The notes under the pieces were generated by a model. That model was given only the letters and a program-made list of their open reading frames with translations, did not search any database and was not told where the DNA came from. This document shows, piece after piece, positions 2,092 to 60,481 of a stretch of DNA of 64,000 nucleotides. The stretch covers positions 81,701-145,700 of the forward strand of contig CAZWTL010000001.1 of NCBI GenBank assembly GCA_964637025.1, written 5' to 3'. The position numbers were made by a program, and so were the translations under genes. This DNA is from an uncultured Syntrophaceae bacterium. GTDB lineage: Bacteria; Desulfobacterota; Syntrophia; Syntrophales; UBA5619. Each line of letters starts with the position of its first letter. Position 1 is the stretch's first letter.

Positions 2092-2339
2092 CCTTTCCGC
2101 CGATGTAGGACAAAGACCGACAGGCCGGCCGGCTTCGGTCCGACGCAAAAATCAGACCCCTGCCGATAGATTCCCCCCTGCAACCGTGATACTCAAACCA
2201 TCCATGGAAATGGACGCCCGTCCATGCTCCGGGCCTGAAGGCCGCCGGAGCGGTCCGGGCGCAAGAGGTATTGCGAGGTATTGCAGTGCATATCGAGGAA
2301 GTACGCTTGGGAACGGCTGTCCGAGGAGTGGCGCGTCCG

Positions 2340-4481
2340 ATGGCGATGCCCATCCCGGATGCGGCCGTGATCCAGGCGCCCATGGCGGTGGATGACGCGC
2401 CGAATGGAATCCCCGTCGAAACATTCCGTGAAATTCTGGAGCAGGCAGGCAGGGAGAACCGGACCTATCTGATGGAGCATGAATGCAAGGAGCTCCTGGA
2501 GGGGATGGGGATCGCAACAACAGGCTCGCTTGTGGCCGGCTCCGGTGATGAGGCGGCGGGGATGGCCCGCGTTTTGGGCTATCCCGTCGCCTTGAAGATC
2601 GTCTCCCCCGATGTGGTTCACAAGGCCGAAACCGGGGGCGTCCGGCTCAATCTGAACTCCGCCGATGAAGTCCGGAAGGCCTACCGGGACATCGTGGGCT
2701 CATACCGCTACCAGCACATCGTCGGCGTTTCCGTTCAGCGGATGGCCGCGCCCGGGGTGGAGGCGATCGTCGGCGTGACCCGGGACCCGAATTTCGGCCG
2801 CATCCTGATGTTCGGGCTCGGAGGCACGTTCGCCGAGGTTCTCGGGGACGTCACCTTCCGGGTGCTTCCGGTGACCGAGAGGGATGTGGACGGGATGATT
2901 CGCGAGATCAAGGGTTATCCGCTGCTCCAGGGATACCGGGGGCAATCGGTCGATGTCGACTCCCTCAAGGGTCTGCTGCTTCGGATCTCCGACCTCGTTG
3001 GGGCCTGCCCCGAGATCCGGGAACTCGATTTGAATCCCGTTTTTCTTTACCCGGACGGGAATTGCGTCGTCGATGCCGGCATGTTCGTCGGAAAGAGGGT
3101 CGAAAGGCCCGCCGCGCGCCGTTCCCCGAATCTCAGGGACTTCTTTTATCCGAAAAGCATCGCCGTGATCGGCGCCTCCGGGGTGAAGGGGAAACTGGGT
3201 TACAACGTTTTGAACAATCTGCTTTCCCACGGCTACAAGGGAAAGCTCTACCCGATCAATCCCAAAAACGACGTGGTGCAGGGGGTCAAGGCCTACCGTC
3301 ATATCGCGGATGTGCCCGGGGCGGTCGATCTGGCCCTCGTGATCGTCCCTGCGGAGAGGACCCCCGCCGCGATCGAAGAGTGCTGCCGAAAAGGGGTGCG
3401 GTTCATCGTCGTGGAGACGGCGGGTTTTGCCGAGACAGGCGGAAAAGGGAAAGAGGCCCAGGAGCGGATCAGGCAACTCGCCGAGGCAAGCGGCTGCCGG
3501 ATTCTCGGTCCAAACTGCTCCGGCGTGATCAACACCCACCATCGCATGGTCCAGTCCATCGGGCTGCTGGAAAAGCTCGGACAGGGCAACGTCGGCATGG
3601 TCGCCCAGGCGGGCGTTTATGCCGCCGGAATCCTGACCGGATTGCGCCGGATCATGGATTTCGGAATCGTGGCGACCATCGGCAACAAGATGGACATCGA
3701 CGAGACCGACATTCTGGAATTCCTCGGTAAGGATGAGCATATCGATGTGATCGCGATGTACATGGAGGATGTCACAAGCGGACGGAGGCTCATCGAGGTC
3801 GCCCGTGAAGTCACGGCGGTCAAGCCGATCATCGCGATGAAATCGGGCAGGACCGAAGCGGGCAAGAAGGCTGCCCTGTCCCACACCGCTTCGCTCGCCG
3901 GCGACGACCGGTTCAACGACGCAGCCTTCCGCCAGAGCGGGATCATCCGCGCGCGGGACAACGCGCACCTGTTCGATTTGGTCAGGGCGTTCTCGAAACA
4001 GCCTCTGCCTGCGGGAGACGGGATGATGGTGGTCACCTATGCCGGGTCGCTGGGGGTTGCCGCGACGGACACGCTCTACCTGCAGGGCCTCCGTTTGGCC
4101 GAGCTCGAACCGGAACTCAAGACCCGGCTTCTGAGGATCATCCCGGACTACGTCCGGAACGTCAACCCCGTGAACTTCTCTTTCAGCATGGAGCCCGACC
4201 AGCTCCGCCGAAGTATTGAAATCGGATTGGAGAGCGAGGACGTCAGCGGTTTCATCGTGGTGATCCAGGGCGAGCTGCTCGGTGCTTTCGTGGATGTCCT
4301 GGCGGGAATGGACTATCGGGGAAAGCCCATTCTCGGTTGCGTGGCCTGCAGGGAGTTCATGATGGATGAGGTAATCCGAATGGAAAAGGCAGGCATCCCC
4401 GTATTCTCGACCGTGGAAATGGCGGCAGAGGCCCTGGCGACGATGCGTCGCTACCGCCTTTACCGGGAAAGGCAGTCATAG
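2340..4481 (+). CDS. ADP-forming acetyl/acyl-CoA synthetase family protein, permuted fusion (ATP-grasp beta part first, CoA-binding/ligase alpha part second)
   Basis: ORF 2271..4481. The N-half 'HECKELLEGMGI...YPVALKIVSPDVVHKAETGGVRLNL...ELDLNPVF' is an ATP-grasp. The C-half 'PKSIAVIGASGVKGKLGYNVLNNL...ILGPNCSGVINT...ALSHTASLAGDD' is CoA-binding plus ligase-CoA with a phospho-His loop. Start is uncertain (2271, 2340, 2346 or 2382); 2340 follows GAGGAG. Confidence 0.85.
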   Translation: MAMPIPDAAVIQAPMAVDDAPNGIPVETFREILEQAGRENRTYLMEHECKELLEGMGIATTGSLVAGSGDEAAGMARVLGYPVALKIVSPDVVHKAETGGVRLNLNSADEVRKAYRDIVGSYRYQHIVGVSVQRMAAPGVEAIVGVTRDPNFGRILMFGLGGTFAEVLGDVTFRVLPVTERDVDGMIREIKGYPLLQGYRGQSVDVDSLKGLLLRISDLVGACPEIRELDLNPVFLYPDGNCVVDAGMFVGKRVERPAARRSPNLRDFFYPKSIAVIGASGVKGKLGYNVLNNLLSHGYKGKLYPINPKNDVVQGVKAYRHIADVPGAVDLALVIVPAERTPAAIEECCRKGVRFIVVETAGFAETGGKGKEAQERIRQLAEASGCRILGPNCSGVINTHHRMVQSIGLLEKLGQGNVGMVAQAGVYAAGILTGLRRIMDFGIVATIGNKMDIDETDILEFLGKDEHIDVIAMYMEDVTSGRRLIEVAREVTAVKPIIAMKSGRTEAGKKAALSHTASLAGDDRFNDAAFRQSGIIRARDNAHLFDLVRAFSKQPLPAGDGMMVVTYAGSLGVAATDTLYLQGLRLAELEPELKTRLLRIIPDYVRNVNPVNFSFSMEPDQLRRSIEIGLESEDVSGFIVVIQGELLGAFVDVLAGMDYRGKPILGCVACREFMMDEVIRMEKAGIPVFSTVEMAAEALATMRRYRLYRERQS

Positions 4482-4541: not shown

Positions 4542-5480
4542 TTATTCCCCGTTGTCCGTGAGAATGGCGCGGGCCCGGACCGTATCCCGTTCGATCTGCG
4601 CGGTCAGCTCTTCCGGGCTTTCGAAGCGCGCCTCGTCCCTGAGCCGGTCGACGAAGAGGACCTCGATCGACTTCCCATAGATGTTCCCATGAAAATCGAG
4701 GATATGAACCTCAACGGAACGTTTGGCGTCGGCGAAAGTCGGATTCCAACCGATGTTGAGGACCCCGTCGAGCCGTTTCCCTGCCAGGAGGACCCGGACG
4801 GCGTAGATGCCGTCGGCCGGGACCAGTGCTTTGTCGGGCTCGATGTTCGCCGTCGGGAAGCCGAGACCCGCCCCCCGATGGTTTCCCCGGATCACCCGGC
4901 CGGAGAGATTGTAGGGCCGGCCCAGCATAACCGCGGCGGAACGAACGTCTCCGGCGAGCAGGGCCTCCCGGATCTTCGTGCTGCTGATGACGGTATCGCC
5001 GACGCGAAAGGCGTTGATGACCTCGACCTCGAAGCCCAGCCGGCGTCCGGCCTCGACCAGAAAGGCCTCGTTTCCCTGCCCGCCGCGGCCGAAGGTATAG
5101 TCGTGCCCGATCAGGATGCGCCGGATCCGCAGACGATCCCAGAGAAAGCCCCGGACGAACGCCTCCGCCGTCGTGTTTGCGTATTCGAGGGAAAAGGGGA
5201 CCAGAATGAAGGCATCGATCCCGAGACCTTCCAGGATTCGGATCTTTTCTTCAAGGGAGGTGATCAGGTAAAAGGGACGACGATCGGGGTGGAGGACCAG
5301 CTTCGGGTGCGGATCGAAGCTGATCGCCACGGCCGCCCGCCCTTCGCGGCGCGCCTCCTCGACGAGCCTTCGGAAAATGAAACGATGGCCCAGATGGACC
5401 CCATCGAAATTGCCGATCGTCACGCAGGCGCCCTGGAGACGTTCCGGGATGTCCTCACTGTCGCGAATTACGTCCATCAA
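4542..5480 (-). CDS. ribF: Bifunctional riboflavin kinase / FMN adenylyltransferase
   Basis: 312 aa. Contains 'CVTIGNFDGVHLGHRFIF' (nucleotidyltransferase HxGH) and the C-terminal riboflavin kinase block 'GRVIRGNHRGAGLGFPTANI...WNPTF...VEVHILDF'. Starts at TTG 5480 or ATG 5477, with GGAGGAGG upstream. Confidence 0.93.
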   Translation of the reverse strand: MMDVIRDSEDIPERLQGACVTIGNFDGVHLGHRFIFRRLVEEARREGRAAVAISFDPHPKLVLHPDRRPFYLITSLEEKIRILEGLGIDAFILVPFSLEYANTTAEAFVRGFLWDRLRIRRILIGHDYTFGRGGQGNEAFLVEAGRRLGFEVEVINAFRVGDTVISSTKIREALLAGDVRSAAVMLGRPYNLSGRVIRGNHRGAGLGFPTANIEPDKALVPADGIYAVRVLLAGKRLDGVLNIGWNPTFADAKRSVEVHILDFHGNIYGKSIEVLFVDRLRDEARFESPEELTAQIERDTVRARAILTDNGE

Positions 5481-15190: not shown

Positions 15191-16504
15191 TCACAGGAGG
15201 TACATCCGTTCCGCCTCCTTGAGCAGGTCCTCGCGGAAGCGGGGGTGGGCCAATTCGATGATCGCCAGGGCGCGCTCCCGGGTCGACTTTCCCTTCAGGT
15301 CGGTGATGCCGTATTCGGTGACCAGGTATTGCGTGTCCATTCGGGGCGTCGTGATCACCGAACCCCGGTCGAGCCGCGGGACGATCCGGGAGACGGTCCC
15401 CTGTTTGGCCGTGGCGTAGAAGGCCAGGAAGGACTTCCCCTCCCGGGCGTTGAAGGCGCCGCGCACGAAATCGAGCTGCCCCCCGGTGGCGCTGAACTGA
15501 TATCCGGCCAGGGCCTCGGCGTTGCACTGGCCCAGCAGGTCCACCTCCAGCACGGAATTGACCGAGATCATCCGGTCGTTGCGGGCGATCACGGCCGGGT
15601 CGTTGACGTAGGAGACCGGATAGCTTTCCAGACTCGGGTTGTCGTCAATGAACCCGTACATCTCCGGGGTGCCGATGGCGACCGTAAAGACATGTTTGCG
15701 CGGATGGAGGGTCTTGCGTCTTCCCGTGACCACCCCGCCCCGGATCAGTTCCATCATGCCGGGACCGAAGAGTTCCGTGTGGATGCCCAGGTCCCTGTGG
15801 CTGGTCAGGTAGCGGGACACGGCATCGGGGAGGGCGCCGATTCCGAGCTGGATCGTCGCCCCGTCGGGGATCAGCGCCGCGATCCGTTTGCCGATCCGCT
15901 CGTCCTCCGGTTCCGGCGCTGCAACCGGTACGGCGAACAGGGGGGCGTCGTTCTCCACGATCGCGTGCACTTCGGAGACGTGCAGCAGGGAATCGCCGAA
16001 GACGCGGGGCATGTTCCTGTTCACCTCCACGATCAGCCGTTTGGCGCAGCGGGCCGCCGTGGAGATGAAATCGTTCGAGGCGCCGAAGCTGAAGTGTCCC
16101 GCCTTGTCCATGGGGGAGACCACGGTGACCACGGTGTCGATGTCCATGTATTCTCGGCAGAGTTTGGGGATCTGGTGAAAGTAGTTCGGCACGAAATAGC
16201 TCAGCCCGGTCCGGACCCGCGAGCGGTCCGCGCCGGTGACGAACCAGGTATAGGAGGTGATCACGTCGCACAGGTCCACGGCCAGAACCGTCTTCATGGC
16301 CACGGCGGTGGGGAAGAAGGAGTAGATCTTGATGTCCTTGAGATCCCCGGACCGGGCGCGGCTCGCAATGGCTTCCAGGAGCGCCGGGGGTTCGGCCGTG
16401 GCGGCGCCATGGACCAGGGTTTCCCCGTCTTTGATCCGCCCTGCGGCCTTGTCCGGGGTCGTGAGTTTCCGCCGGTACTGGGCGGCAAAATCGGATTTTT
16501 TCAT
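15191..16504 (-). CDS. Acetyl-CoA hydrolase/transferase family enzyme (4-hydroxybutyrate/butyryl-CoA:acetate CoA-transferase-like)
   Basis: Internal ATG of ORF 15191..16561, preceded by GAGGGAGGA. Contains 'GIGALPDAV', 'IHTELF' and 'SATGGQLDFVRGA', typical of the AcetylCoA_hydro/Cat family. Confidence 0.82.
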   Translation of the reverse strand: MKKSDFAAQYRRKLTTPDKAAGRIKDGETLVHGAATAEPPALLEAIASRARSGDLKDIKIYSFFPTAVAMKTVLAVDLCDVITSYTWFVTGADRSRVRTGLSYFVPNYFHQIPKLCREYMDIDTVVTVVSPMDKAGHFSFGASNDFISTAARCAKRLIVEVNRNMPRVFGDSLLHVSEVHAIVENDAPLFAVPVAAPEPEDERIGKRIAALIPDGATIQLGIGALPDAVSRYLTSHRDLGIHTELFGPGMMELIRGGVVTGRRKTLHPRKHVFTVAIGTPEMYGFIDDNPSLESYPVSYVNDPAVIARNDRMISVNSVLEVDLLGQCNAEALAGYQFSATGGQLDFVRGAFNAREGKSFLAFYATAKQGTVSRIVPRLDRGSVITTPRMDTQYLVTEYGITDLKGKSTRERALAIIELAHPRFREDLLKEAERMYLL

Positions 16505-16607
16505 CGGTTCCTCCCTCGCGGGCCGGAATGGCCCCGATCCGGCTGCTATGCGTCCGTGCATCCCCCTGCCGGACGGGGTCCGGACAACCGGCCTCTTGAG
16601 AGCCTCC

Positions 16608-17906: not shown

Positions 17907-20081
17907 TCAGGGACCGGAACGAATCCCGGCGGTCCCGGGGGCCAGCACCACCAGGGCGTCGGCCGCCACGGGTTCCGATCCCGTGAGGATGATCGGGTTC
18001 AGGTCGATCTCCGCGATCTCAGGGTGGATGAGGGCGATCGCGCCGACCGTCCGGAGGATCCCGGCAAGGGCAGGAAGGTCCGCAGGGGGGAGGCCGCGGA
18101 AACCGCCCAGAAGCGCCGTCGCACGGATATCGGCGAGCATCTCCTCCGCCTCGGCATCCGAAAGCGGCGCCGATCGAAAGGCCGTATCCCGGAACGCCTC
18201 GGCAAAGACGCCGCCCAGGCCGAACAGGACGCAGGGGCCGATGCCCGGGAAGCGGGTCATCCCGGTCAGAAACTCGCGGCTCCCCGGGACCATCTCCTGG
18301 ACCAGGATGGGGAGATCCCGGCGGGCTGCAGCGCGGATCGATCGGACGGCCTTCCGCAGGGCCGCCTCCGTCCGGATGTCCAGCGCGATCAGCCCCTTGC
18401 CGGACTTGTGCAGGATCTCTCCGCCGCACGCCTTGGCGGCGACCGGGAATCCGATGTTGCGGGCGACGGCCACCGCCTCTTCCCCGTTTCCGGCAATCCC
18501 CTCCCGGGTGACCGGGATGCCGTAGGCGGCCAGGATCCTTTTGGATTGATGCTCGTCGAGGGCCTTCCGTCCTTCCGCCAGGGCAGTCCTGATGAGTTCC
18601 GCCGCCTCCGGACTCGCCGGGGGCAGGGCGGCCCGGATGACCGGCTTGCGTCTCCGGACCTCCAGGTGGCGAAGCAGCGATGCCATGCCCCGCGCCGCCT
18701 TCTCGGGCGAGTCGAAGACCGGGACGCCGCGGTCCATGAAGAGGGCGGTGTAGTCGTCGTCGCGCCCAAAAAAGGAGGAGACCGCCAGGGGAACGCCGAA
18801 TGTCCGGGGAAGTTCCGCAGCGGGGGTCATGTCCGTAGCCGTCCGCTCCAGGAAGGAATCCAGCGAAACGTTCCCCAGGATGTCGCGGAGGTGCGGATAG
18901 ACCGCCTTCATGAAGCCGGAGTGCAGGGCGCCGTGGACGACGAGGGCGTCCACTTCGTTGCTTTCCAGGATCATCTTCGGGATGGTGACGGCCAGGAGCT
19001 TCATATCCAGGTTGAAGGTGAGATCGACCGGGTTGGCGCTGGAGGCATGTCCGGGGATGATCTCCCGTATCCTTTTCCGCAGCCCATCGGAGAAACGGGG
19101 GATCGTCATGCCTTCACGATCCGCATGGTGGGAGATCGCGGTTCCCGGTCCGCCCGAGTTCGTCACCACGGCCAGCCTGCGGCCGCGCAGGGGCGGCTGG
19201 GAGGCGTGGATCCATCCGTGGGCGTAGAGATCCTCGATGGAATGACAGCGGATGATCCCGCACTGTTTGAAGATGCCCTCGTAGAGGAAGTCAGGTCCGG
19301 CCAGGGCGCCGGTGTGGCTCAGGCCCGCGCGGGCGCCGGCGGCCGATCCGCCCACGTACTGGGCGAGGATCGGTTTTTTCGGGGAGATCCGCTGCGCGGC
19401 CTCGATGAAGCGCCGGCCGTCGCGGAGCCCCTCGACGTAGAGAATGATCGCCCGGGTCTGCTCGTCTTCGCCGAGATATTCGAGGGCGTCGACCATGTGG
19501 ATGTCGGCCTCGTTCCCGCAGCTGACGGCCTTGCTGAAACGGATCCCGCGCTCGCGGAGGTAGGCGAAGGTCTGCGTGATGTAGGTCCCGCTTTGGGAAA
19601 CCATGCCGAGCGGGCCCGGACGCCCCTCCAGGGCGGCGAAGGTGAGGTTGAGGGAGATGGCGGTGTTCACGATCCCCATGCAGTTCGGTCCGAGGAACCT
19701 GACGCCCCGGGCCGCCGCGATTTCCCGGAGCCGATCCTCCAGCGCCCGTCCCGTTTCGCCGGTCTCCCGGAATCCGGCGCTGATGATGATCGCCCGCTTC
19801 GTGCCGATCTTTGCGAAATTTTCGAAGACCGGCAGGACCTGCGCGGTGGGGACGACCAGCAGGGCGAGGTCGGGCGCCTCGGGAAGATCAAGGGGCGAGG
19901 CATAGGCGGGGTGTCCCAGCACGACCTTCTCCGTGGGATGGACCGCGTAGAATTTTCCCTGGTAGCCGTCCTTGAGGATGGAAAGGGCCTGCAGGGTGCC
20001 CATTTTCACGGGATTGTTGCCTGCGCCGGCGACGGCGATGGACTTCGGGTGCAGCAGGAGGTGGAGCGGATTTTCGGACAT
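17907..20081 (-). CDS. ADP-forming acetyl/acyl-CoA synthetase family protein, canonical alpha-beta fusion
   Basis: The N-half 'PKSIAVAGAGNNPVKMGTLQ...FLGPNCMGIVNT...GLSHTGALAGPD' is CoA-binding plus ligase. The C-half 'SKRILAAYGIPV...FPVAAKACGGEILHKSGKGLIALDI...EIDLNPIIL' is an ATP-grasp. Confidence 0.88.
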   Translation of the reverse strand: MSENPLHLLLHPKSIAVAGAGNNPVKMGTLQALSILKDGYQGKFYAVHPTEKVVLGHPAYASPLDLPEAPDLALLVVPTAQVLPVFENFAKIGTKRAIIISAGFRETGETGRALEDRLREIAAARGVRFLGPNCMGIVNTAISLNLTFAALEGRPGPLGMVSQSGTYITQTFAYLRERGIRFSKAVSCGNEADIHMVDALEYLGEDEQTRAIILYVEGLRDGRRFIEAAQRISPKKPILAQYVGGSAAGARAGLSHTGALAGPDFLYEGIFKQCGIIRCHSIEDLYAHGWIHASQPPLRGRRLAVVTNSGGPGTAISHHADREGMTIPRFSDGLRKRIREIIPGHASSANPVDLTFNLDMKLLAVTIPKMILESNEVDALVVHGALHSGFMKAVYPHLRDILGNVSLDSFLERTATDMTPAAELPRTFGVPLAVSSFFGRDDDYTALFMDRGVPVFDSPEKAARGMASLLRHLEVRRRKPVIRAALPPASPEAAELIRTALAEGRKALDEHQSKRILAAYGIPVTREGIAGNGEEAVAVARNIGFPVAAKACGGEILHKSGKGLIALDIRTEAALRKAVRSIRAAARRDLPILVQEMVPGSREFLTGMTRFPGIGPCVLFGLGGVFAEAFRDTAFRSAPLSDAEAEEMLADIRATALLGGFRGLPPADLPALAGILRTVGAIALIHPEIAEIDLNPIILTGSEPVAADALVVLAPGTAGIRSGP

Positions 20082-20248: not shown

Positions 20249-21214
20249 ATGACCGGACAGGAGGAGGCCGGGCGGATATACGATATCGTGATCGTCGGCG
20301 GAGGGCCGGCGGGACTCACCGCGGGGATGTACGCCGCGCGAGCGGACATGCGGACCCTGGCAATCGAGGGCGCTTCGAGTTTGAGCCAGATCACGGCGAC
20401 CGACATCATCGAAAACTATCCGGGCATCCCCGGAGGGGCCAACGGCTTCGATATCATCGAACGGTTCAAGAAGCAGGCCGCGGAATTCGGGCTGGAAACC
20501 GACTCCGCCGACGTGACGGCCGTGTCGCGGAAACGGCTGGGCGCCCTGGACGGATGGGAGATCGTTGCCGGCGAAAGACGGTTCCGCGCCCTTTCCGTGA
20601 TCCTTGCCACCGGCGCCGCCTGGCGCCGTCTCGGAGCGCCGGGCGAGGAGCGGTTCATCGGCCGCGGCGTTTCGTTCTGCGCGACCTGCGACGCCCCCCT
20701 GTTCCGCAACCGGGAGGTGGCGGTGGTCGGCGGCGGCGACACCGCGATCCAGGAGGCGATCTATCTGACCCGTTTCGCGAAAAAGGTGACGGTCATCCAC
20801 CGGAGGGACCGGCTGCGGGCAACCGCGATCCTCCAGAAGCGGGCCTTGGCGAACGAGAAGATCTCTTTTGCGTGGAATTCCGTCGTCGATGCGATCGACG
20901 GACTCGACCTGCTCCAGGAGGTCCGCCTGAGGGACGTCAAGACGGGGGAAAAACGGACCCTCCCGGTCAGCGGCGTCTTCATCTTTGTCGGGCTCTCGCC
21001 GAACACGGCCCCCTTCCGGGGTCTGGTCGACCTGGACGCGGGAGGGTACATTCAGGTCGATGCGAACATGCAGACCTCCGTTCCCGGAATTTTCGCCTGC
21101 GGGGACTGTACGGCCAAGCGCCTGAGGCAGGTGGTCACCGCCTGCGGCGACGGGGCCACGGCCGCCTTTTCCGCGCAGCTCTACGTGGAGGAACTCAAGG
21201 GAGAAGCGTACTGA
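20249..21214 (+). CDS. trxB: Thioredoxin reductase
   Basis: Contains 'IVIVGGGPAGLTAG', the redox-active 'CATCDA', the NADPH site 'VAVVGGGDTAIQEA', and 'GIFACGDC'. Confidence 0.92.
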   Translation: MTGQEEAGRIYDIVIVGGGPAGLTAGMYAARADMRTLAIEGASSLSQITATDIIENYPGIPGGANGFDIIERFKKQAAEFGLETDSADVTAVSRKRLGALDGWEIVAGERRFRALSVILATGAAWRRLGAPGEERFIGRGVSFCATCDAPLFRNREVAVVGGGDTAIQEAIYLTRFAKKVTVIHRRDRLRATAILQKRALANEKISFAWNSVVDAIDGLDLLQEVRLRDVKTGEKRTLPVSGVFIFVGLSPNTAPFRGLVDLDAGGYIQVDANMQTSVPGIFACGDCTAKRLRQVVTACGDGATAAFSAQLYVEELKGEAY

Positions 21215-21215
21215 G

Positions 21216-22043
21216 ATGGAACAGTGGATCGCCGCCTGGCGGAACATACCGGCTCACATCAGCCCTTACCTGTTCGAGATCGGCTCCTTCCAGCTGCGCT
21301 GGTACAGCCTGATGTACTTGGCGGCCTTTGTCTGCATCTATCTGGTCGTCATGCGCCGGATCCGGCAGGACCGTTTGCCCTACACGGCGGAGCTGATCCA
21401 GGATTATTTCGTTTGGGCGATTCTCGGGGTGATCATCGGCGGCCGTCTCGGCTATGTCCTCTTCTACAATCTCGGCTACTATCTGCGGCACCCCCTGGAG
21501 ATCCTCTTGCCCTTCGAATTCAACGGCGGCTTCCGTTTCGTGGGGATCAGCGGGATGTCCTACCACGGGGGCGCCCTCGCCGTGCTGATCGCGACCGCGA
21601 TTTTCTGCCGGGTTCGCCGGATCGACTTCTGGCGGTTCGCCGATCTCTTCAGCTCGGCGATACCCCTCGGCTACACCTTCGGAAGGATCGGCAACTTTCT
21701 CAACGGCGAACTGTACGGACGGGCCACGGACGTGGCCTGGGCCATGGTCTTCCCGCTCGATCCGCTGCACCTGCCGCGCCACCCTTCCCAGCTCTACGAG
21801 GCCTTCTTCGAGGGGATCTTCCTGTTCGCGGTTCTCTGGCTGGTCCGGAAGCGGTTTTCCTCGACCGGCGCCCTGTTCGCCCTCTACATCATGGGCTACG
21901 GCCTCGTCAGGTTCTTCATCGAGTTCTTCAGGCAGCCGGACGCCCAGCTCGGATTCGTCTTCGGCCCCCTGAGCATGGGGCAGCTCCTCTGCCTGCTGAT
22001 GATCGCAGCCGGCGCTGCGATTTACACCCTTCGCGTGAAATGA
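21216..22043 (+). CDS. lgt: Prolipoprotein diacylglyceryl transferase
   Basis: Contains 'FEIGSFQLRWYSLMY', 'GGRLGYVLFYN', 'GRIGNFLNGELYGR' and 'HPSQLYEA'. Confidence 0.93.
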   Translation: MEQWIAAWRNIPAHISPYLFEIGSFQLRWYSLMYLAAFVCIYLVVMRRIRQDRLPYTAELIQDYFVWAILGVIIGGRLGYVLFYNLGYYLRHPLEILLPFEFNGGFRFVGISGMSYHGGALAVLIATAIFCRVRRIDFWRFADLFSSAIPLGYTFGRIGNFLNGELYGRATDVAWAMVFPLDPLHLPRHPSQLYEAFFEGIFLFAVLWLVRKRFSSTGALFALYIMGYGLVRFFIEFFRQPDAQLGFVFGPLSMGQLLCLLMIAAGAAIYTLRVK

Positions 22044-22057
22044 GAAAGGAGTGTGTC

Positions 22058-23392
22058 ATGGGGAAACGAATGGTCATCGTCGGTGCCGGCGCGGGAGGCG
22101 CTTCCGCAGCCGCCGAGGCGAAACGGACGGACCCATCGCTTTCGATCGCCATGATCGAACAGCGTTCCGAGGTTTCCGTTGCCGCCTGACCGATGCCCTA
22201 TTACATCGGCGATGTAATCAGGGACTCGAAGAGGCTGATCGCCCGGACGCCCGAGAAGTTCCGGGAGACGGGGATCGACGTCCGGATCGACGCCCGCGTC
22301 GAGGAGGCCGATCCGGAATCGGGGCGGGTCCGCCTGGCGGACGGGGAGACCTTTCCCTATGACCTCCTCGTCCTGGGAACGGGAACCACGCCGCTGCTGC
22401 CCGGCATCCCCGGAGAGTCGCTGGAAGGGGTTTTCACCCTGAAAAAGCTTTCGGACGCGGTCCGGATCAAGGCCTGGCTCCGCGACGTTCCCTGCCGGAA
22501 GGCGATCATCGTCGGGGCCGGCTTCATCGGGATGGAGATGGCCGAGGCGATCCGGAACCTGGGGATCGAGGCGGCGGTCTATCACCGCGGGACGCTTCCC
22601 GCGGCCCGATGGGACCCGGAATTTTCGAAGCTGGTTCTGGAGGAGCTCCAGAGGCACGGGGTCGGATTCGTCGCCGGCGTCGAGACGAAGGCCGTGGAGG
22701 CGGGCAAGGAGCACCGCCTGCGGCTGTCGACCAACCTCGGCGAAGACGAGGCCGATATGATCCTGATGGCCGTCGGGGTCCGGCCCGATGCGGAGCTGGC
22801 CAGGAGCATGGGCCTGTCGCTGGGAAAGACGGGGGCGATCCAGGTCGATTTCTCGCAGCGAACCTCCAGGCCGGAGGTCTATGCGGTGGGGGACTGTGCG
22901 GAGTCGTTCCACCGGGTGAGCGGCCGCTGGGTGAACATCCCCCTGGGCGACATCGCCAACAAGCAGGGCCGGGTGGCCGGGCGGAACATCGGCGGGAAGG
23001 AGATGCGTTTTCCCGGGATCGTGGGGGCGCAGTCCTTCAAGGTCTTCGATCTGGAGGTCGCGGCAACGGGCCTTGACGAACGGGAGGCCAAACAGGCCGG
23101 TTTCGACCCCGCCGCCGCGCTGATCTGGGGGAACGCGATCGCCGGGTCGATGCCCGGGAACACGAAACTGGGGGTCAAACTGGTCGCCGACCGGACCACG
23201 GGGAAACTGCTCGGGGCCCAGGCGGTGGGTCGCGCGGGGGCGGTAAGCCGGGTGAACACCCTTTCAGCCTGCCTCTGGTCCGGGCTCTCCCTGGACGACG
23301 TCGGCTGGCTCGACCTGGCCTATGCCCCGCCGTTCAGCGGCTCCTGGGACCCGATCCACATCGCCGCCCAGACGCTCCGCCGGCAGCTCTGA
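22058..23392 (+). CDS. FAD-dependent pyridine-nucleotide disulfide oxidoreductase, CoA-disulfide reductase / NADH oxidase-peroxidase family, with in-frame UGA (22187..22189) read as selenocysteine
   Basis: ORFs 21224..22189 and 22193..23392 are in the same frame, separated only by TGA-CCG. The joined product is 'MGKRMVIVGAGAGGASAAAEAKRTDPSLSIAMIEQRSEVSVAA-U-PMPYYIGDVI...'. It is colinear with the 'SFANC(A/G)LPYYIG' active-site region of CoADR/Nox/Npx enzymes. Total length of 444 aa is typical of the family. Confidence 0.75.
22196..22223 (+). other. SECIS-like stem-loop downstream of the in-frame UGA
   Basis: CCCT-ATTACATC-GGC-GATGTAAT-(C)-AGGG gives up to 12 bp with one bulged C. The upper stem starts 10 nt after the UGA, and the apical-loop GG lies 22-23 nt from the U of UGA. 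The arms use TAT and GTA codons, which look unusual against the mostly G/C-ending codons here. Confidence 0.6.
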
Positions 23393-26924: not shown

Positions 26925-27037
26925 GGCCTTTGGCCCGCGCCACGTGTAGCATGGATCCACAACGCGAACGGCGTCCCGGGTGCGAGGTGGAACGCCGGTT
27001 CCGCGATTTCGAGATCAAAGAAAAAAGGAGGTGCACC

Positions 27038-28666
27038 ATGTTTTGCTATCAGTGTGAACAGACAGCCCGGGGGGAAGCGTGCAGCAAGTCGGGGGTATGC
27101 GGGAAGCAGCCGGATGTGTCGGCCCTTCAGGATCTCCTCGTCTACGCCCTGGCCGAGATGTCGCAGGCGGCGCTGGCGGCTGCGAAGGCGGGGATCCGCG
27201 ACAGCGCCGTCGATCTGCTGGTCTGCGAGGGCCTCTTCACGACCGTAACGAACGTGGATTTCGATCCGGAGCGCATCGCGCCGATGATCCGCAAGGCGGC
27301 GTCCCTGCGCGATGAATTGACCGCGAAGCTCCAGGCCGCAGGCAAGCCGGCCGGACTGCCCGGCGGGGCGGCCCCGTTGCAGCCGGCGGACACCCTGGCG
27401 GGGATGGCCTCCCAGGGAGAGGCCCGCGGCATCCGCTCCTACCCGGCCGTCAATCCCGATGTCCTTTCCATCAAGCACACCCTGCTCTACGGGATCAAGG
27501 GAATCGCCGCTTATGCGGACCATGCCGCGATCCTGGGACACAAGGACGACGCCGTATTCGGGTTTCTCCAGGAAGCCCTGGCCGCGATGCTCGACGACAA
27601 GCTGGACCTCAACGGCGCCCTGGGCCTTCTGATGAAGTGCGGCCAGGTGAACCTCCGGACCATGGAACTGCTGGATGCGGCCAACACCGGCGCCTACGGC
27701 CATCCGGTTCCGACCAAGGTGCCCCTGGGGGCGAAGCGGGGGAAGGCGATCCTGATTTCCGGCCACGATCTCAGGGATCTCGAGGAGCTGCTCAAGCAGA
27801 CGGAGGGAAAGGGCATTTGCGTCTACACCCACGGGGAGATGCTCCCTGCCCACGGCTACCCGGGGCTCAAAAAATATGCCCATTTCTACGGCCATTACGG
27901 GACGGCCTGGCAGAACCAGGCGAAGGAGTTCGCGGCCTTTCCCGGCGCCATCCTGATGACGACCAACTGCATCCAGAGGCCTCAGGACGCCTACCGGGAC
28001 CGGATCTTCACCTCAGGCCTCGTCGCCTGGCCGGGGGTCGTCCACATCGCCGACCGGAACTTCAAGCCGGTCATCGACAAGGCGCTCGCGCTTCCGGGCT
28101 TCGATGCGGATACGGAAGGGAAGGCCGTGATGACGGGGTTCGGCCACAGCGCCGTCCTCGGTGTTGCGGACCGGATCATCGCGGCGGTGAAGGACAAAAA
28201 GATCCGCCACTTCTTCCTCGTGGCCGGCTGCGACGGGGCGAAGCCGGGACGGAACTACTACACGGAGTTCGTGGAAAAGGTCCCTGCGGACTGTGTCGTC
28301 CTGACGCTGGCCTGCGGCAAGTTCCGCTTCTTCGACAAGAACCTCGGGGACATCGGCGGGATTCCCCGCCTGCTGGACATGGGGCAGTGCAATGACGCCT
28401 ATTCGGCGATCCAGGTGGCGGTCGCCCTGGCGAAGGCCTTCGGCGTCGGCGTGAACGACCTCCCCCTGTCAATGATCCTTTCCTGGTACGAGCAGAAGGC
28501 GGTCGCGATCCTGCTCACGCTGCTTTCGCTGGGGATCAAAGACATCCGCCTGGGGCCGACGCTGCCGGCCTTTGTGACCCCGAACGTGCTCAACGTCCTG
28601 GTGGAAAAGTTCGGCATCAAACCGATCGCCACGCCGGACGAGGACCTCAAGGCGATCCTCGGCTGA
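27038..28666 (+). CDS. hcp: Hybrid cluster protein (hydroxylamine reductase / NO reductase)
   Basis: Internal ATG preceded by AAAGGAGG. The N-terminal Cys motif is 'MFCYQCEQTARGEACSKSGVCGK'. Also 'ILISGHDLRDLEELL', 'TNCIQ', 'LTLACGKFRF' and 'GQCNDAYSA'. Confidence 0.95.
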   Translation: MFCYQCEQTARGEACSKSGVCGKQPDVSALQDLLVYALAEMSQAALAAAKAGIRDSAVDLLVCEGLFTTVTNVDFDPERIAPMIRKAASLRDELTAKLQAAGKPAGLPGGAAPLQPADTLAGMASQGEARGIRSYPAVNPDVLSIKHTLLYGIKGIAAYADHAAILGHKDDAVFGFLQEALAAMLDDKLDLNGALGLLMKCGQVNLRTMELLDAANTGAYGHPVPTKVPLGAKRGKAILISGHDLRDLEELLKQTEGKGICVYTHGEMLPAHGYPGLKKYAHFYGHYGTAWQNQAKEFAAFPGAILMTTNCIQRPQDAYRDRIFTSGLVAWPGVVHIADRNFKPVIDKALALPGFDADTEGKAVMTGFGHSAVLGVADRIIAAVKDKKIRHFFLVAGCDGAKPGRNYYTEFVEKVPADCVVLTLACGKFRFFDKNLGDIGGIPRLLDMGQCNDAYSAIQVAVALAKAFGVGVNDLPLSMILSWYEQKAVAILLTLLSLGIKDIRLGPTLPAFVTPNVLNVLVEKFGIKPIATPDEDLKAILG

Positions 28667-29164: not shown

Positions 29165-30334
29165 TCACGAAGCGAAGCGGTTGGGGTCCAGGGGCGAAAC
29201 ATCCATGAAGGTCTTTCCGTCGACGATCAGGTCGGCCACGATCTTCCCGGTCACGGGGCTCAGGGCGATGCCGTCCCCCTCGTGCCCCGCGGCGATGAAA
29301 CATCCCTCCAGACCGTTTGCATAGCCGACCAGCGGCAGTCCGTCGGGCGTAAAGGGCCTGATGCCGCCCATGGTGCGGATGATATGGATCGGTCCCAATC
29401 CGGGGACCAGACGCAGGGCGTTTTTGAGGATCTCCCGGATCCCCTCGCGGGTGTTCCTGACCTCGTAGCCCACGAATTCCCGGGTTCCGCCGATGAAGAT
29501 GTTCCCCTTTTCGGTCTGGCTAAGGGAAAGGCCGACCCCGAGTTGAACGGCCCGGCTTTTCGCTCCCTCCGCCCTGCCGGCGTTGTATTTGGCCGCGATG
29601 TAGGAAGCGGACAGCATGCTCCTGGAGATGAAGGGGGCCGCGGGCTCGGTGATCACGATCTGTCCGCGCCGGGGTTGGATCGGCAGATCCAGGCCCGCCA
29701 TCCTGCCGATCAGGGACGCCCATGCCCCCGCCGCGTTCACCACGATCGGCGCGTGGGCCGGCCCCTGCGCGGTCGCCACCCCTTCCACCCGTCCGCCTTT
29801 CGTCAGGTAGCCCGTGACTTCCGTCTTCAGCAGGATCTCGGCGCCCAGCCTCTTCGCGGCCCCGGCAAAACCCAGGTTGAGCTCGATGGGATTCACGTCG
29901 CCGTCCTGGGGGCTGTAGGTGGACGCGATCAGGTGACCCGCCAGACCCCGCTGCATCCGGGAGGCCTCCCGGCGGTCGATGATGTCGACCTGCAGGCCCG
30001 TCCGCTTCTGACGGGCCACGAAATCCTCCATGACCTTCAATTCGTCGGCGGTCTCGATGAGGATCATCCCGCCCTTTTGATGGTATTCGATGTCGTGATC
30101 CAGCTCGTCCCGAAGGCCCTTGAAGAGTTCGGCGCTGGCCAGGGCCAGCCTCAGATGGATCCCGGCGTTCTTGGACTGCAGGAAGATGCCCGTATCGCAG
30201 GCCCCGGAGGCGCCGGAGGCAAAATCCTCCTTTTCCAGCAGCAGGACCTTCAGGCCCCGTTTCGCCAGTTGATAGGCCGTCGAGCTCCCGATGACGCCGC
30301 CGCCGACCACGATCACGTCCGCTTTCCGGGTCAT
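29165..30334 (-). CDS. FAD-dependent oxidoreductase, DAO/sarcosine-oxidase-beta/proline-dehydrogenase-beta-like catalytic subunit
   Basis: Internal ATG of ORF 29165..30577: 'MTRKADVIVVGGGVIGSSTAYQLAKRGLKVLLLEK'. The C-terminal 'FIAAGHEGDGIALSPVTGKIVADLI' fits the DAO family. ATGA overlap with the upstream gene. Confidence 0.85.
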   Translation of the reverse strand: MTRKADVIVVGGGVIGSSTAYQLAKRGLKVLLLEKEDFASGASGACDTGIFLQSKNAGIHLRLALASAELFKGLRDELDHDIEYHQKGGMILIETADELKVMEDFVARQKRTGLQVDIIDRREASRMQRGLAGHLIASTYSPQDGDVNPIELNLGFAGAAKRLGAEILLKTEVTGYLTKGGRVEGVATAQGPAHAPIVVNAAGAWASLIGRMAGLDLPIQPRRGQIVITEPAAPFISRSMLSASYIAAKYNAGRAEGAKSRAVQLGVGLSLSQTEKGNIFIGGTREFVGYEVRNTREGIREILKNALRLVPGLGPIHIIRTMGGIRPFTPDGLPLVGYANGLEGCFIAAGHEGDGIALSPVTGKIVADLIVDGKTFMDVSPLDPNRFAS

Positions 30335-30606
30335 TCTTCGTCCCCCTGGGCCATCTCCTCGATCCTGACCGCGCGGACCGGGGGGCGAAAGGTGGGAGGG
30401 AGAATTTCGGCGGGATCCCGTCCGGCGGCGAGCATGCCGGCGATCAGTTTCCGGCAGGTTCTCCCCTGGCAGAGCCCCATCCCGGCATGGGTTCTCTTCT
30501 TGATCCCCGACAGCGTGGTCGCGCCGTCGCGGATGGCCTGTTCGATCTCTTCCCGGGTCACCTCTTCGCACCGGCACACAAACACCGTACCGTTCTTTTC
30601 ACCCAT
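30331..30606 (-). CDS. BFD-like [2Fe-2S]-binding small subunit
   Basis: Has 'VCRCEEVTREEIEQAIRDGATTLSGIKKRTHAGMGLCQGRTC' (C-x-C...C-x4-C). It overlaps both neighbours. Confidence 0.8.
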   Translation of the reverse strand: MGEKNGTVFVCRCEEVTREEIEQAIRDGATTLSGIKKRTHAGMGLCQGRTCRKLIAGMLAAGRDPAEILPPTFRPPVRAVRIEEMAQGDEE

Positions 30607-31117
30607 GCCGGATTGTCTCCCTTCTGCAGATCGTGCGGACCTCCAGGCAGAACTCCTTGGGAACCTCCACGCCCACCACGGCCGTTCCGTCATGGGCCTT
30701 GCTTTTCCGGACGTGCGCCACCCGTCCGTCCGTCACGTACTCCCCGCTGCGGTTGCCGCAGGGGACGATCCGGCCCTTCGCGGGGAGGGGCCAGTACTCG
30801 TAGGGGAATTCGACCAGAGAGGTGCCTTCCGTGTAGTGGAGATGGACCTTGAAAATCGCCAGACCCGGGCACTGCGCGATGCACGCGCCGCAGCCCGTGC
30901 ACTTGCCGCCGTCCAGGGCCGGCAGGTTGGTGATCGGCTCTCCCACGGCAATGGCGCCGAAGGGGCAGGCCTCCTCACAGGGGTTGCAGGGGATTTCCTG
31001 GACGCACTCGATGACGGCCACCGGCCCCTGTTCCATCCTCTCCCGGCTCGGCATGCCGGGACTGGCCAGGAGCTCCTTTTCGGAAGGGATCCCCGTGTAC
31101 CGGACGCCTCGGTTCAT
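30599..31117 (-). CDS. 4Fe-4S dicluster ferredoxin-like subunit
   Basis: Internal ATG of ORF 30599..31528. Has 'CNPCEEACP' and 'CTGCGACIAQCP'. ATGA overlap with the upstream gene. Confidence 0.8.
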   Translation of the reverse strand: MNRGVRYTGIPSEKELLASPGMPSRERMEQGPVAVIECVQEIPCNPCEEACPFGAIAVGEPITNLPALDGGKCTGCGACIAQCPGLAIFKVHLHYTEGTSLVEFPYEYWPLPAKGRIVPCGNRSGEYVTDGRVAHVRKSKAHDGTAVVGVEVPKEFCLEVRTICRRETIRHG

Positions 31118-32211
31118 GCGGATGCCTCCATCGACAGATCGAGAAGCCGGCCTTTGGCGACCCGGCGTCCCTCGCCGAACGGTCCGGTGCGGAGCGCGTC
31201 CAGCCGCTCCCAGATCGCGGCCTTGCGTTTGCGGGCCTCGTCCGGGTCCAGCAACCCCAGGGCTTCGGCGCAGGCCGTGCCGGCCAGCCGCCCCTCCTCC
31301 AGGGCCGTGCTGGCCTCCTCCACGCCCGAAACGTCGCCGGCGACGTAGACGCCCGGCACCGTGGTCTCCATGTTCAGGTCGTGCTTCGGCACATGGCCGC
31401 CCAGGGCGGGAACAAAGACGAATTCGCAGCCCATGAGCCAGGCGAGCTCCGTCAGGGGGGTGAGCCCCACGGCGAGGCAGACCGTATCGACGGCCAGGCT
31501 CTTTTCCGAACCCGCCACGGGCTGCCACCGGGAATCCAGGGCCACGATCTCCACCGACTCCACCTGGCCGTTGCCGGCCGCCCTTTTCACCGTGTGGGAC
31601 AGATGGATGGGCACCCCGGCCCGCCGGATCTTGGCGGCATGGACCCCGTATCCTCCGATCTGCGGCGCCGCCTCGATGAGCGCCGCCACCTCCGCCCCGG
31701 CCTGCATCAGCTGGTAGGAGACGATCAGCCCCACGTTGCCCGAGCCGATCATCAGCACCCTGCGGCCTGGAAGGACGCGGTTCACGTTGATCATCGTCTG
31801 CGCGGCCCCGGCGCCCATGACCCCGGGGAGTGTGCTGCCCGGAAAGGCCAGGGCGTTTTCCGCGGCGCCCGCGGCGATGACGATCTTTTCGGCCCGCAGG
31901 GACTCCGCCTTGCCGCGGCGGACATAGCCCACGGTCCGGTCGGGAAACAACGCGTAGACCGGGGATTCCAGCAGCACCTCCACGTTCAGGCTGCGGGTCT
32001 CCTCGAGAAGCTGTTCGCCGATGCGGAAGCCGCGGACCCCGGCCCGGTGTTCCCGTGAGCCGAAGAACTTGTGAATCTGTTTGAACAGCTGTCCCCCGGG
32101 CTTGGCGTTTTCGTCGATCAGGACCGCCTGGCCTCCGGCACGGGCCACTTCGATGGCCGCCGCAAGCCCCGCCGGTCCGGCGCCGATCACGGCCGCCTGC
32201 GTCGTCTTCAT
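31114..32211 (-). CDS. FAD/NAD(P)-binding pyridine-nucleotide oxidoreductase subunit (HcnB / OoxA / proline-dehydrogenase-alpha-like)
   Basis: Has 'AAVIGAGPAGLAAAIEVARAGGQAVLIDE...GGQL', a second Rossmann 'VLMIGSGNVGLIVSYQL', and 'GVYVAGDVSG'. Start 32211 forms an ATGA overlap with the upstream stop. Confidence 0.85.
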   Translation of the reverse strand: MKTTQAAVIGAGPAGLAAAIEVARAGGQAVLIDENAKPGGQLFKQIHKFFGSREHRAGVRGFRIGEQLLEETRSLNVEVLLESPVYALFPDRTVGYVRRGKAESLRAEKIVIAAGAAENALAFPGSTLPGVMGAGAAQTMINVNRVLPGRRVLMIGSGNVGLIVSYQLMQAGAEVAALIEAAPQIGGYGVHAAKIRRAGVPIHLSHTVKRAAGNGQVESVEIVALDSRWQPVAGSEKSLAVDTVCLAVGLTPLTELAWLMGCEFVFVPALGGHVPKHDLNMETTVPGVYVAGDVSGVEEASTALEEGRLAGTACAEALGLLDPDEARKRKAAIWERLDALRTGPFGEGRRVAKGRLLDLSMEASA

Positions 32212-32525
32212 GGTTCGTCCGTCCATTTCCCGCGCCCCTGCTGGGTTTCTACGATCATCCCGTCCCTCACCGGGGTCACGCAGGTCCGGACGTTGGGCTG
32301 GCCATCCACGGTCATCACGCAGTCCGTGCAGCGGCCGATGCCGCAGAAAAGCCCTCTGGGGCTTCCGAACCGCGGCGTGAGCCGGAAGACGCGGATGCCG
32401 GCGGCCAAAAGCGCCGAGGCAATCGGCTCTCCCGCGATGGCGGCGATTCTTTCCCCATCCACGACGATGGAGGCGTCCGGCCTCCTGGGATCCTCGCCCA
32501 GGATGGGATGCTGGGTCACTCTCAT
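32208..32525 (-). CDS. [2Fe-2S]-binding small subunit (HcnA / sarcosine-oxidase-alpha N-terminal-like)
   Basis: Has 'IVVDGERIAAIAGEPIASALLAAGI...GLFCGIGRCTDCVMTVDGQPNVRTCVTPV'. ATG 32525 is preceded by GAGGTG. Confidence 0.8.
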   Translation of the reverse strand: MRVTQHPILGEDPRRPDASIVVDGERIAAIAGEPIASALLAAGIRVFRLTPRFGSPRGLFCGIGRCTDCVMTVDGQPNVRTCVTPVRDGMIVETQQGRGKWTDEP

Positions 32526-32605
32526 GAAAAAACGCACCTCGTATTTTTTAAACCGGGGAGATTTACCCCTTCCGGCTTCCTTGTGCAAGCAGATTGTTTT
32601 GTGCC

Positions 32606-49590: not shown

Positions 49591-50529
49591 CTATTTCCGG
49601 ATTTCCCGGAGTCCGTTGAGGATCTTTTCCTTCCCGGTCAAGGTCTGTTTCCGTTTGGAATCGACGATCACGCAGGTGGGCGTCCCCTGAATCTTGTCCT
49701 CCTTGAGGTAGTTGTTCAGGATCCTGAAGATCGGGGTGATGTCGTACGGGACGATATCGACCTTCCTGTCCTTCAGGAAGGCCTCCATGGACTCCTTGGC
49801 CCGGATCTCCTGATGCGCCGCCTCGAAGAGGGCGCTCCGGGCGGCGACCGCCTGATGCAGCTCCTTCTTGGCGTTGAGCGCCGCGAGAAAATAGCCGGTG
49901 TAGAGAACCGTCTCGCTGTGGACCGGCGCATCGATGAAAAGGACGCGAATGAGGCCCTTGTCGACGAGTTCGCCCACGAGCGCCATCACCTCCGGCTCCT
50001 CGGCCGCGCAGGGCTCGCAAAAGTAATCCGTATAGATGCGGACCTCGACGGCCCCCTTTCCGAAGACGGGCACGGCGGGCTCGGCGGCGAACGCGGGGGT
50101 GGTCGAACCGGAGAAGAAGAGGAGGAAGAAGGCCAGCCCGGCTGCTGCGGCCAGCACGGAAATCGCCTTCCGGTTCGGTTCGAAATTGACCGCGAGGGCC
50201 AGGAAGATCGTGACCGCGAAGCCGAGGCAGTATGGACAGTAGACGCCGCTGTGGATCTGGTAGCCGATCAGGAAGAGCTCCCCGCCGGCCCCGAAGGCGA
50301 GCAGCAGGAGACAGAGGAGATGCTTCCTGAACCAGGCGAGGATGAACAGCATGGCCATGTAGAAGATGCCCATGTGTTTGAGATCGATGCCCAGAATGTC
50401 CCCTTTGAGGTATTTGCAGTAACCCAGGCAGAGCATGTAGGCGACGGTGATGGCGATGCCGACGATCGCCAGCAGCAGGGTGAGAAAACGCCTCTTCCCG
50501 GACAGCCACTTCTTCATGAAATCGGACAC
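49591..50529 (-). CDS. VKOR-like membrane domain fused to a periplasmic thioredoxin/DsbA-like domain
   Basis: About 5 TM spans with 'CLGYC' and 'CPYC', then the soluble part 'VEVRIYTDYFCEPCAAEEPEV'. Start is GTG 50529 or, more likely, ATG 50517. Confidence 0.65.
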   Translation of the reverse strand: MSDFMKKWLSGKRRFLTLLLAIVGIAITVAYMLCLGYCKYLKGDILGIDLKHMGIFYMAMLFILAWFRKHLLCLLLLAFGAGGELFLIGYQIHSGVYCPYCLGFAVTIFLALAVNFEPNRKAISVLAAAAGLAFFLLFFSGSTTPAFAAEPAVPVFGKGAVEVRIYTDYFCEPCAAEEPEVMALVGELVDKGLIRVLFIDAPVHSETVLYTGYFLAALNAKKELHQAVAARSALFEAAHQEIRAKESMEAFLKDRKVDIVPYDITPIFRILNNYLKEDKIQGTPTCVIVDSKRKQTLTGKEKILNGLREIRK

Positions 50530-58112: not shown

Positions 58113-58388
58113 GCGCCGTTACGACCCGGTCTTCGCCTTCTCCCCGCACCTTCGCCGCCACCCAACGCGTCCGGCCCGGCCGGCTGCGGGGACGGCGGTC
58201 TGCATGGTCTCCGGGGCCGGACCGACGGGCAAGACGCCCTCCACGTTCGGACCGGCCCGGCGCGATCCTCCCCGGTCCCCCTGACAGGGGCCGGCGCGAT
58301 GCGGGGCCTCGTCGGGAGTCCGGCGCGGCAGCGAATCAAATCATTAAGAATTGCCGTGCTGTGCGCATCCCCAACGAGCATTTTTATC

Positions 58389-58418
58389 TTGACAAGGCGA
58401 CAACACCTTGGGTACAGT
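58389..58418 (+). promoter_or_regulatory. Candidate sigma70 promoter for the pilus-assembly genes
   Basis: TTGACA (58389-58394), 18 nt spacer, TACAGT (58413-58418), in an AT-rich 437-bp intergenic region. Confidence 0.35.
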
Positions 58419-60475: not shown

Positions 60476-60481
60476 CGAACG

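Follow-up and report, generated by a model that had tools for sequence, protein, structure and literature searches.

A UGA codon at the redox-active position of a CoA-disulfide reductase-like flavoprotein from an uncultured Syntrophaceae bacterium probably encodes selenocysteine

A stretch of 64,000 nucleotides (nt) from an uncultured Syntrophaceae bacterium (contig CAZWTL010000001.1, hereafter the window) contains, at positions 22058-23392 of the forward strand, a gene for a CoA-disulfide reductase-like flavoprotein with one in-frame TGA, and we consider it very probable that this is a genuine selenocysteine (Sec)-encoding gene with a functional selenocysteine insertion sequence (SECIS). A simple lister of open reading frames (ORFs) splits the gene into two pieces in a common frame, 21224-22189 and 22193-23392; an earlier note on this DNA, made from the letters alone, had described the two as parted by the TGA at 22187-22189, and its coordinates and translations match the sequence. 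The peptide encoded upstream of the TGA, from ATG 22058, is MGKRMVIVGAGAGGASAAAEAKRTDPSLSIAMIEQRSEVSVAA, and the part after it begins PMPYYIGDVI. The features of the gene are as follows.

22058-23392, forward strand: complete predicted selenoprotein gene, 444 codons plus stop codon (23390-23392), starting at ATG 22058, with one in-frame TGA
22045-22051, forward strand: Shine-Dalgarno-like AAAGGAG, so assigned from its position, with a 6-nt spacer to ATG 22058
22058-22186, forward strand: start codon and 43 N-terminal codons 5' of the Sec codon, encoding the flavin adenine dinucleotide (FAD)-binding beta-alpha-beta unit with GAGAGG
22187-22189, forward strand: UGA, predicted Sec codon (residue 44), at the catalytic Cys position
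22200-22218, forward strand: predicted bacterial SECIS core, an 8-bp stem ATTACATC/GATGTAAT with a GGC loop, coding for Y-Y-I-G-D-V-I
22196-22223, forward strand: extended hairpin CCCT-ATTACATC-GGC-GATGTAAT-C-AGGG, with a lower stem CCCT/AGGG and a bulged C, as folded in the window

Translated with Cys for the TGA, the 444-residue product matched the Pfam families Pyr_redox_2 (residues 4-288), Pyr_redox and the dimerization domain Pyr_redox_dim, and its top NCBIfam match was the CoA-disulfide reductase (CoADR) model TIGR03385 (E = 5e-117). Of the solved structures, 6ruz, an NADH oxidase from Thermus thermophilus, came closest (E = 6e-106 over residues 1-440), and those of Pyrococcus CoADRs came next (PDB 4fx9, 5l1n and 3kd9, P. 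horikoshii; E ~1e-87); structures of NADH peroxidases (Npx) and NADH oxidases (Nox) matched more distantly (E = 1e-56 to 1e-44) than the CoADR-type ones. Alignments to 6ruz and to the Pyrococcus CoADRs were free of gaps over the first 100 residues and matched position 44, the TGA, with the 6ruz Cys in VSYGA-C-GLPY and with residue C48 of P. horikoshii CoADR, which bears out the proposal of the earlier note that the UGA occupies the site of the redox-active Cys. In the P. horikoshii enzyme C48 is joined in a mixed disulfide to a tightly bound CoA, and the group to which this enzyme belongs comprises single-cysteine FAD-dependent reductases in which the tightly bound CoA is used for the reduction of di-, per- and polysulfides (PMC6026696). 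The window enzyme resembles 6ruz and P. horikoshii CoADR in its full-length homology, its three-domain build and the equivalent position of its one redox residue, and differs from both, which are Cys enzymes, in its predicted Sec and in scores below the CoADR and Nox equivalog cut-offs. These matches place the product, as a homodimeric FAD enzyme, among the pyridine-nucleotide disulfide oxidoreductases, in their single-cysteine CoADR/Nox/Npx branch.

The hairpin downstream of the UGA was compared with the consensus bacterial SECIS (bSECIS) of Zhang & Gladyshev, as given in Fig. 2A of PMC13188914, which has a loop of 3-9 nt and an upper stem of 4-16 bp. In the same model one or both of the first two loop nucleotides are G (most often GG or GU), the apical loop lies 16-37 nt from the UGA, and the minimum free energy (MFE) does not exceed -7.5 kcal/mol (PMC13188914). 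As read in the sequence, and as the earlier note had described, the 8-bp stem with its GGC loop begins 10 nt past the UGA and the two loop Gs are nt 22 and 23 counted from the U of the UGA. A 3-nt loop and an 8-bp stem, both within the consensus ranges, were present in 74/74 TGA-bearing genes, the loop being GGC in the window and GGN throughout; the spacing from UGA to loop is 18 nt (22190-22207), and the 46 nt from the UGA onward fold at -17.1 kcal/mol in the window, with 71 of the 74 family members also within the energy limit. The likeness to a bacterial SECIS suggested earlier thus extends to all four constraints of the model. Over 22180-22245 the predicted fold had -24.1 kcal/mol and a z-score of -2.98 against dinucleotide shuffles, with 1 of 200 shuffles reaching an equal value. 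Like the bacterial SECIS elements, of which that of Escherichia coli fdhF is the studied case, the window hairpin lies in the coding region directly 3' of the UGA and carries a small G-G loop, and its 8-bp upper stem and 18-nt spacing are within the consensus range; it differs in having a loop at the 3-nt minimum and an A-U-rich stem that is near-invariant in relatives.

Codon choice in the stem was far more restricted than its surroundings. Across the 74 genes the stem codons were TAT (72/74), TAC, ATC, GAT and GTA (74/74 each), with a synonymous entropy of 0-0.18 bits, compared with 1.64 bits for the Gly codon to which the third loop base belongs and about 1-2 bits for flanking codons, and this invariance held across proteins down to 54% identity. 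The remark of the earlier note that TAT and GTA are unusual here can now be given in numbers: in 28 confident window genes GTA accounts for 1.7% of the Val codons, TAT for 29% of the Tyr codons and GAT for 30% of the Asp codons. The stem was paired in 74/74 genes, and its sole variation was a compensatory change from U-A to C-G in two loci (L076 and L080), at the cost of an Ile-to-Val replacement. Cys-encoding orthologues, on the other hand, had drifted at the stem sites (GTC or GCC for GTA, TTT for TAC, GAC for GAT) and did not form the hairpin. On this comparative evidence the hairpin at 22200-22218 is under RNA-level selection and fits the bacterial SECIS model. Since it is built into the codons of Y-Y-I-G-D-V-I, protein and RNA constraints overlap, and the near-invariance of the stem is attributable to its superposition on this conserved active-site motif. 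The CCCT/AGGG extension of the stem, also proposed earlier, does fold in the window and was found in a subset of relatives to which, with the window, it is confined; it was rejected as a conserved part of the element, the pair 17-42 being present in 42/72 distinct sequences and the positions 18-41 being unpaired in 47/72.

We then considered whether the codons upstream of the TGA belong to the gene. Mean pairwise nucleotide differences among the 74 TGA-bearing genes, taken over codons -40 to -1, were 0.29/0.17/0.62 at codon positions 1/2/3, compared with 0.39/0.29/0.61 in a downstream control stretch and 0.74/0.72/0.71 immediately 5' of the ATG, where the periodicity of the upstream piece is lacking. 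Amino-acid identity was 65.5% in the upstream piece and 50% in the control stretch. Because of this codon-position periodicity, we conclude that the 43 upstream codons are translated and under protein-level purifying selection. An ATG was found at codon -43 in 74/74 genes and the upstream piece, with its GxGxxG FAD-binding fold, is homologous; therefore the orthologues do not begin at the downstream ATG, and both the homology of the 43-residue piece and the position of the start, which the earlier note had singled out as points to check, come out in favor of its proposal. The Met after the TGA belongs to a conserved C/U-P-M-P-Y motif that is found also in full-length Cys forms, and for that reason is not a start codon. 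An alternative start at ATG 22040, in frame and six codons 5' of 22058, was disfavored, given the conservation of ATG 22058 in 74/74 genes and the Shine-Dalgarno-like sequence before it; ATG 22040 overlaps the stop of the preceding lgt gene (ATGA; 22040-22043), homologues begin at the MGK position, and translation may be coupled to lgt through this ATG.

Public gene models were found to be truncated in the way that the earlier note had forecast. The nearest protein-database clusters (74-82% identity) consist nearly entirely of 399-residue models starting from the Met two codons past the TGA, some of them NCBI records titled 'FAD-dependent oxidoreductase', and the models of 444-454 residues are Cys forms. 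In one independent assembly the gene caller gives the 43-residue piece as a separate ORF.

Relatives were collected with one genome per species (GTDB representatives), which gave 80 loci, 79 of them readable at the catalytic codon and one ending before the site. Most carry the labels of Syntrophales, Syntrophaceae or Smithella metagenome-assembled genomes (MAGs), others have broader labels, and five are labeled Acidobacteriota. The comparison of orthologues at this codon, another check named in the earlier note, returned TGA in 75/79 loci and TGT in 4/79 (L017, L025, L027 and L067). A further Cys orthologue, L083 (protein P0001), is 77% identical to the window protein, reads TGT ... GAT GCC ATA, and likewise lacks the hairpin; its neighborhood is that of the window, trxB-lgt-X-SpoU-CutA1-glucokinase, where X is the gene under study. 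TGA is also the commonest ordinary stop in the window (19/27, from the 28 confident genes), so TGA has not been reassigned genome-wide.

Several observations weigh against the reading of the gene given here. The 19-nt core hairpin by itself has only -5.2 kcal/mol, and it is missing from the MFE fold predicted without constraint for the 46 nt past the UGA in 30 of the 74 genes. Rfam yielded no SECIS-type match, whether the limit was set at gathering threshold or at E <= 10, and its single hit, int-alpA (E = 5.9), was dismissed as a chance match. The stem is nearly invariant, so that covariation support amounts to one pair in two sequences. No tRNA-Sec, selA, selB or selD was found in the window or among 85 related loci, a result uninformative on other parts of the genome: E. 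coli SelA, SelB and SelD as tblastn queries had no match at E <= 1e-3 in the window and these loci (937 kb), ARAGORN found no tRNA-Sec in the window or related loci and, as the window's only tRNA, a tRNA-Leu, and Pfam annotation of all window genes included no SelA, SelB or SelD. With C in place of U, the product also fell short of the cut-off of TIGR03385 (391.3 versus 578.8 bits), of the other CoADR equivalogs NF007123 (379.6 versus 458) and NF010037 (226.8 versus 394), and of the equivalog for H2O-forming NADH oxidase, NF046103 (234.8 versus 600). Because these curated cut-offs were missed, we call the product CoADR-like and not CoADR proper, and assign it, as far as sequence can tell, to the Sec-containing CoADR/Nox-type family.

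The absence of Sec machinery from the window and related loci and the modest stability of the hairpin core would also suit a UGA that is read through otherwise than as Sec, either through insertion of a near-cognate Trp or Cys or through SelB-borne Cys-tRNA(Sec) under selenium scarcity, the hairpin then serving as a read-through or pausing signal. We regard this as quite improbable, because the codon lies on the redox-active Cys of a family catalogued with Sec at that very place, the hairpin fits the SelB-type bSECIS model down to the loop G-G and the spacing, the only other codon seen at the site encodes Cys, a classic Sec/Cys pair, and relatives in the group are selenoprotein-rich (PMC1794560). 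More improbable still is that the TGA is a true stop, in which case the gene would be a pseudogene or encode a 399-residue protein from ATG 22193, and the 43 codons before the TGA would play no part. That model has dozens of public records in its favor, and an ATG does stand one codon past the TGA; however, the 399-residue product would be deprived of the GxGxxG FAD-binding strand-helix and of the catalytic residue, and ATG 22193 encodes the conserved Met of the C/U-P-M-P-Y motif shared with full-length Cys forms. The upstream codons are periodic, more conserved than the downstream control and opened by an ATG in 74/74 genes, and a nonsense codon would not persist in 75 species-level genomes.

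A sequencing or assembly error for TGC or TGT has next to no probability in our judgment. Single-base errors do occur in metagenome assemblies, and four relatives do carry TGT; but TGA, and not TGC or TGT, was present in contigs from four independent runs (ERR13624443, SRR34774209, SRR18053989 and SRR34774211) whose identity to the window is 99.8-100% and which encode an identical 399-residue product, so that the resequencing result that could have overturned the earlier note did not appear. The TGA and its conserved hairpin recur, besides, in 75 orthologues from different assemblies.

If the UGA at 22187-22189 is decoded as Sec, the mRNA hairpin at 22200-22218 would act as the SECIS when the codon reaches the ribosome and would recruit SelB-GTP with Sec-tRNA(Sec), a mode of UGA decoding summarized in PMC1794560 and PMC9312934. 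Sec would then be inserted in place of termination, as the anatomy of the site and the comparative signal suggest. By analogy with the homologues, electrons would pass from NAD(P)H to FAD and on to a Sec-Se-S-CoA selenenylsulfide, or to an Se-OH, at residue 44, and the selenolate would attack a disulfide, persulfide or polysulfide substrate, or else peroxide or O2. We know of no biochemical characterization so far of an Se-S-CoA selenenylsulfide redox center.

The window gene is not of a new kind: it joins a known Sec family and leaves knowledge of Sec decoding unchanged. Where PMC9312934 and PMC13188914 treat this family, Sec-containing CoADR/NADH oxidase is given as a selenoprotein family listed since 2004 (Kryukov & Gladyshev), with Geobacter metallireducens WP_011365774.1 as its type example. 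A 2006 bacterial survey reported a selenoprotein 'NADH oxidase' in one genome, that of G. metallireducens (PMC1794560), and the protein is listed also in an Olavius symbiont study. The mention in the earlier note of a Sec 'NADH oxidase' in previous listings was thus accurate, as the relevant entries in papers of 2006, 2022 and 2026 attest. The Sec motif given for the family is U-G-x-P (PMC13188914), to be compared with U-P-M-P in the window: the Sec position and the P at +3 agree, the G at +1 is replaced by P, and the Cys relatives of the window clade have C-P-M-P. Like the Geobacter family, the window protein is COG0446/TIGR03385-like, carries a single Sec in place of the redox-active Cys, just before x-x-P-Y, and is predicted from Cys/TGA pairing and a downstream hairpin; unlike the Geobacter form, compared by its listed motif, it has U-P-M-P, and its Sec form is the majority state, found in a clade of 75 mostly Syntrophales genomes. 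Syntrophus aciditrophicus, itself of this group, has SelD and 19 selenoproteins, an indirect argument for Sec decoding in the window's organism, and the CoADR/Nox family is absent from its 2006 list (PMC1794560), which fits the TGT found in L017, a MAG labeled S. aciditrophicus. What is new, to judge from the genes compared, is a large Syntrophales clade of U-P-M-P forms, mostly truncated in databases, and its six to seven switches between Sec and Cys.

These switches were counted on neighbor-joining (NJ) trees that took the Thermus enzyme as root and comprised 73 Sec and 27 Cys forms, with 60 bootstrap trees. The Cys forms made up six separate groups among the Sec forms; the minimum number of Sec/Cys switches was 6-7 in 60/60 bootstrap trees, and Sec was the root state in 41/60. 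Every Sec-to-Cys replacement for which DNA was at hand showed decay of the hairpin. Because one hairpin sequence is common to all Sec forms, a single origin of Sec followed by repeated Sec-to-Cys replacement is the economical reading, which we infer without regarding it as proven: Sec and its SECIS would be ancestral to a large, mostly Syntrophales clade in which Cys replaced Sec 6-7 times. It tells against this direction of change that the case for it depends on NJ trees and on taking identical SECIS elements to imply a single origin. A candidate second site correlated with the switch, C in the GDC-C-E of Cys forms versus A in the GDC-A-E of the window, was discarded, C being present also in 58 of the 73 Sec forms. 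In bacteria at large, Cys-to-Sec conversions are reported to outnumber those from Sec to Cys (PMC13188914). We advance tentatively, and with somewhat less than even confidence, a fuller scenario in which the U-P-M-P clade stems from an ancient gain of Sec separate from that of the Geobacter U-G-x-P form, Sec was ancestral and reverted at least six times with decay of the SECIS, and the enzyme works through an Se-S-CoA selenenylsulfide. A separate ancient U-P-M-P Sec with at least six reversions would, if true, run counter to the bacterial Cys-to-Sec trend stated in PMC13188914.

The case has consequences for annotation, given that the closest public models are 399-residue truncations without the FAD-binding N-terminus and the catalytic residue: annotation-based surveys would miss this selenoprotein because the gene models are truncated. 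A family first catalogued in a single genome would here have Sec as its normal state in a group of syntrophic anaerobes. The natural Sec/Cys pairs, with 77-84% identity and a shared neighborhood, would suit tests of what selenium contributes in a single-residue flavoprotein disulfide/persulfide reductase, and a SECIS stem written into an active-site motif offers a benchmark for the detection of RNA structure inside coding sequence.

Some further features of the orthologues were recorded. All five Cys orthologues with DNA use TGT and not TGC (L017:5995, L025:5995, L027:3661, L067:5995 and L083:2065), which is mildly unusual for a local TGT share of 27-59% of Cys codons. The five MAGs labeled Acidobacteriota (L018, L020, L028, L033 and L040) have the Sec gene with an identical SECIS, cluster in the tree and lack trxB-lgt upstream, as expected from either mis-binning or horizontal transfer. 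Locus L079 (~4850-5010) has the TGA and SECIS, and a run of N (masked or a gap) from about 20 codons past the TGA; its automated match began only at residue 54 because of this run. Three independent Logan contigs (L085, L086 and L087) all start at window position 22180, 7 nt 5' of the TGA, likely as a result of assembly-graph branching at the UGA/SECIS/active-site stretch, which is near-identical among co-occurring Syntrophales species.

Two genes precede the predicted selenoprotein gene.

20249-21214, forward strand: trxB, thioredoxin-disulfide reductase, TIGR01292 (371 bits against a cut-off of 343), two genes upstream
21216-22043, forward strand: lgt, prolipoprotein diacylglyceryl transferase, PF01790 (E = 1e-74), directly upstream

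Both had been named in the earlier note. An lgt gene lies directly upstream in 41/74 testable loci, and trxB upstream on the same strand in 34/65; because this arrangement is common to Sec and Cys forms, it has no bearing on Sec. The proximity of trxB agrees loosely with a thiol-redox role. A gene for a hybrid-cluster protein/hydroxylamine reductase (hcp, 811 bits) is found at 26930-28666 of the forward strand, 3.5 kb downstream of the predicted selenoprotein gene, and locus L024 likewise has an Hcp gene about 5 kb downstream; hcp and trxB lend the region a redox-stress flavor.

A frame-wise scan of the window for TGA amid coding-like sequence gave no second selenoprotein gene. Among the candidates set aside were the TGAs at 60473 and 61019, which lie between three successive pilus/secretion genes in one frame, each with an ATG of its own, and the TGA ending the Fer2_4 ORF (32208), which is followed by out-of-frame junk. 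The protein encoded at 49594-50529 on the reverse strand was rejected as a selenoprotein for its ordinary CEPC motif: this 312-residue membrane protein joins a hydrophobic N-terminal half, which bears CPYC, to a Thioredoxin_4 (DsbA/DsbG-like) domain, which bears the CEPC, and represents the Cys form of a Pfam family that has Sec members elsewhere.

The pilus/secretion cluster occupies 57273-64000 of the forward strand and comprises an ExeA-like AAA_22 ATPase, a PilM/N-like gene (58523-60475) and a pair of small genes, followed by a secretin (61558-63183) and a further gene; a long antisense ORF at 59273-61519 within it misleads simple ORF callers. On the reverse strand, 29165-32588 holds an HcnABC/opine-oxidase-like set made up of Fer2_4 (32208-32588), Pyr_redox_2 (31114-32226), a Fer4-containing ORF (30599-31528) and DAO (29165-30577), in which the overlap of 414 nt between the Pyr_redox_2 and Fer4 ORFs suggests a mis-assigned start or a frameshift. 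Two genes of the ADP-forming acyl-CoA synthetase type, at 2271-4481 (forward strand) and 17907-20081 (reverse strand), have permuted domains, one with ATP-grasp first and the other with CoA-binding first, and an acetyl-CoA hydrolase/transferase gene lies nearby at 15191-16561, making this a neighborhood rich in CoA-thioester metabolism.

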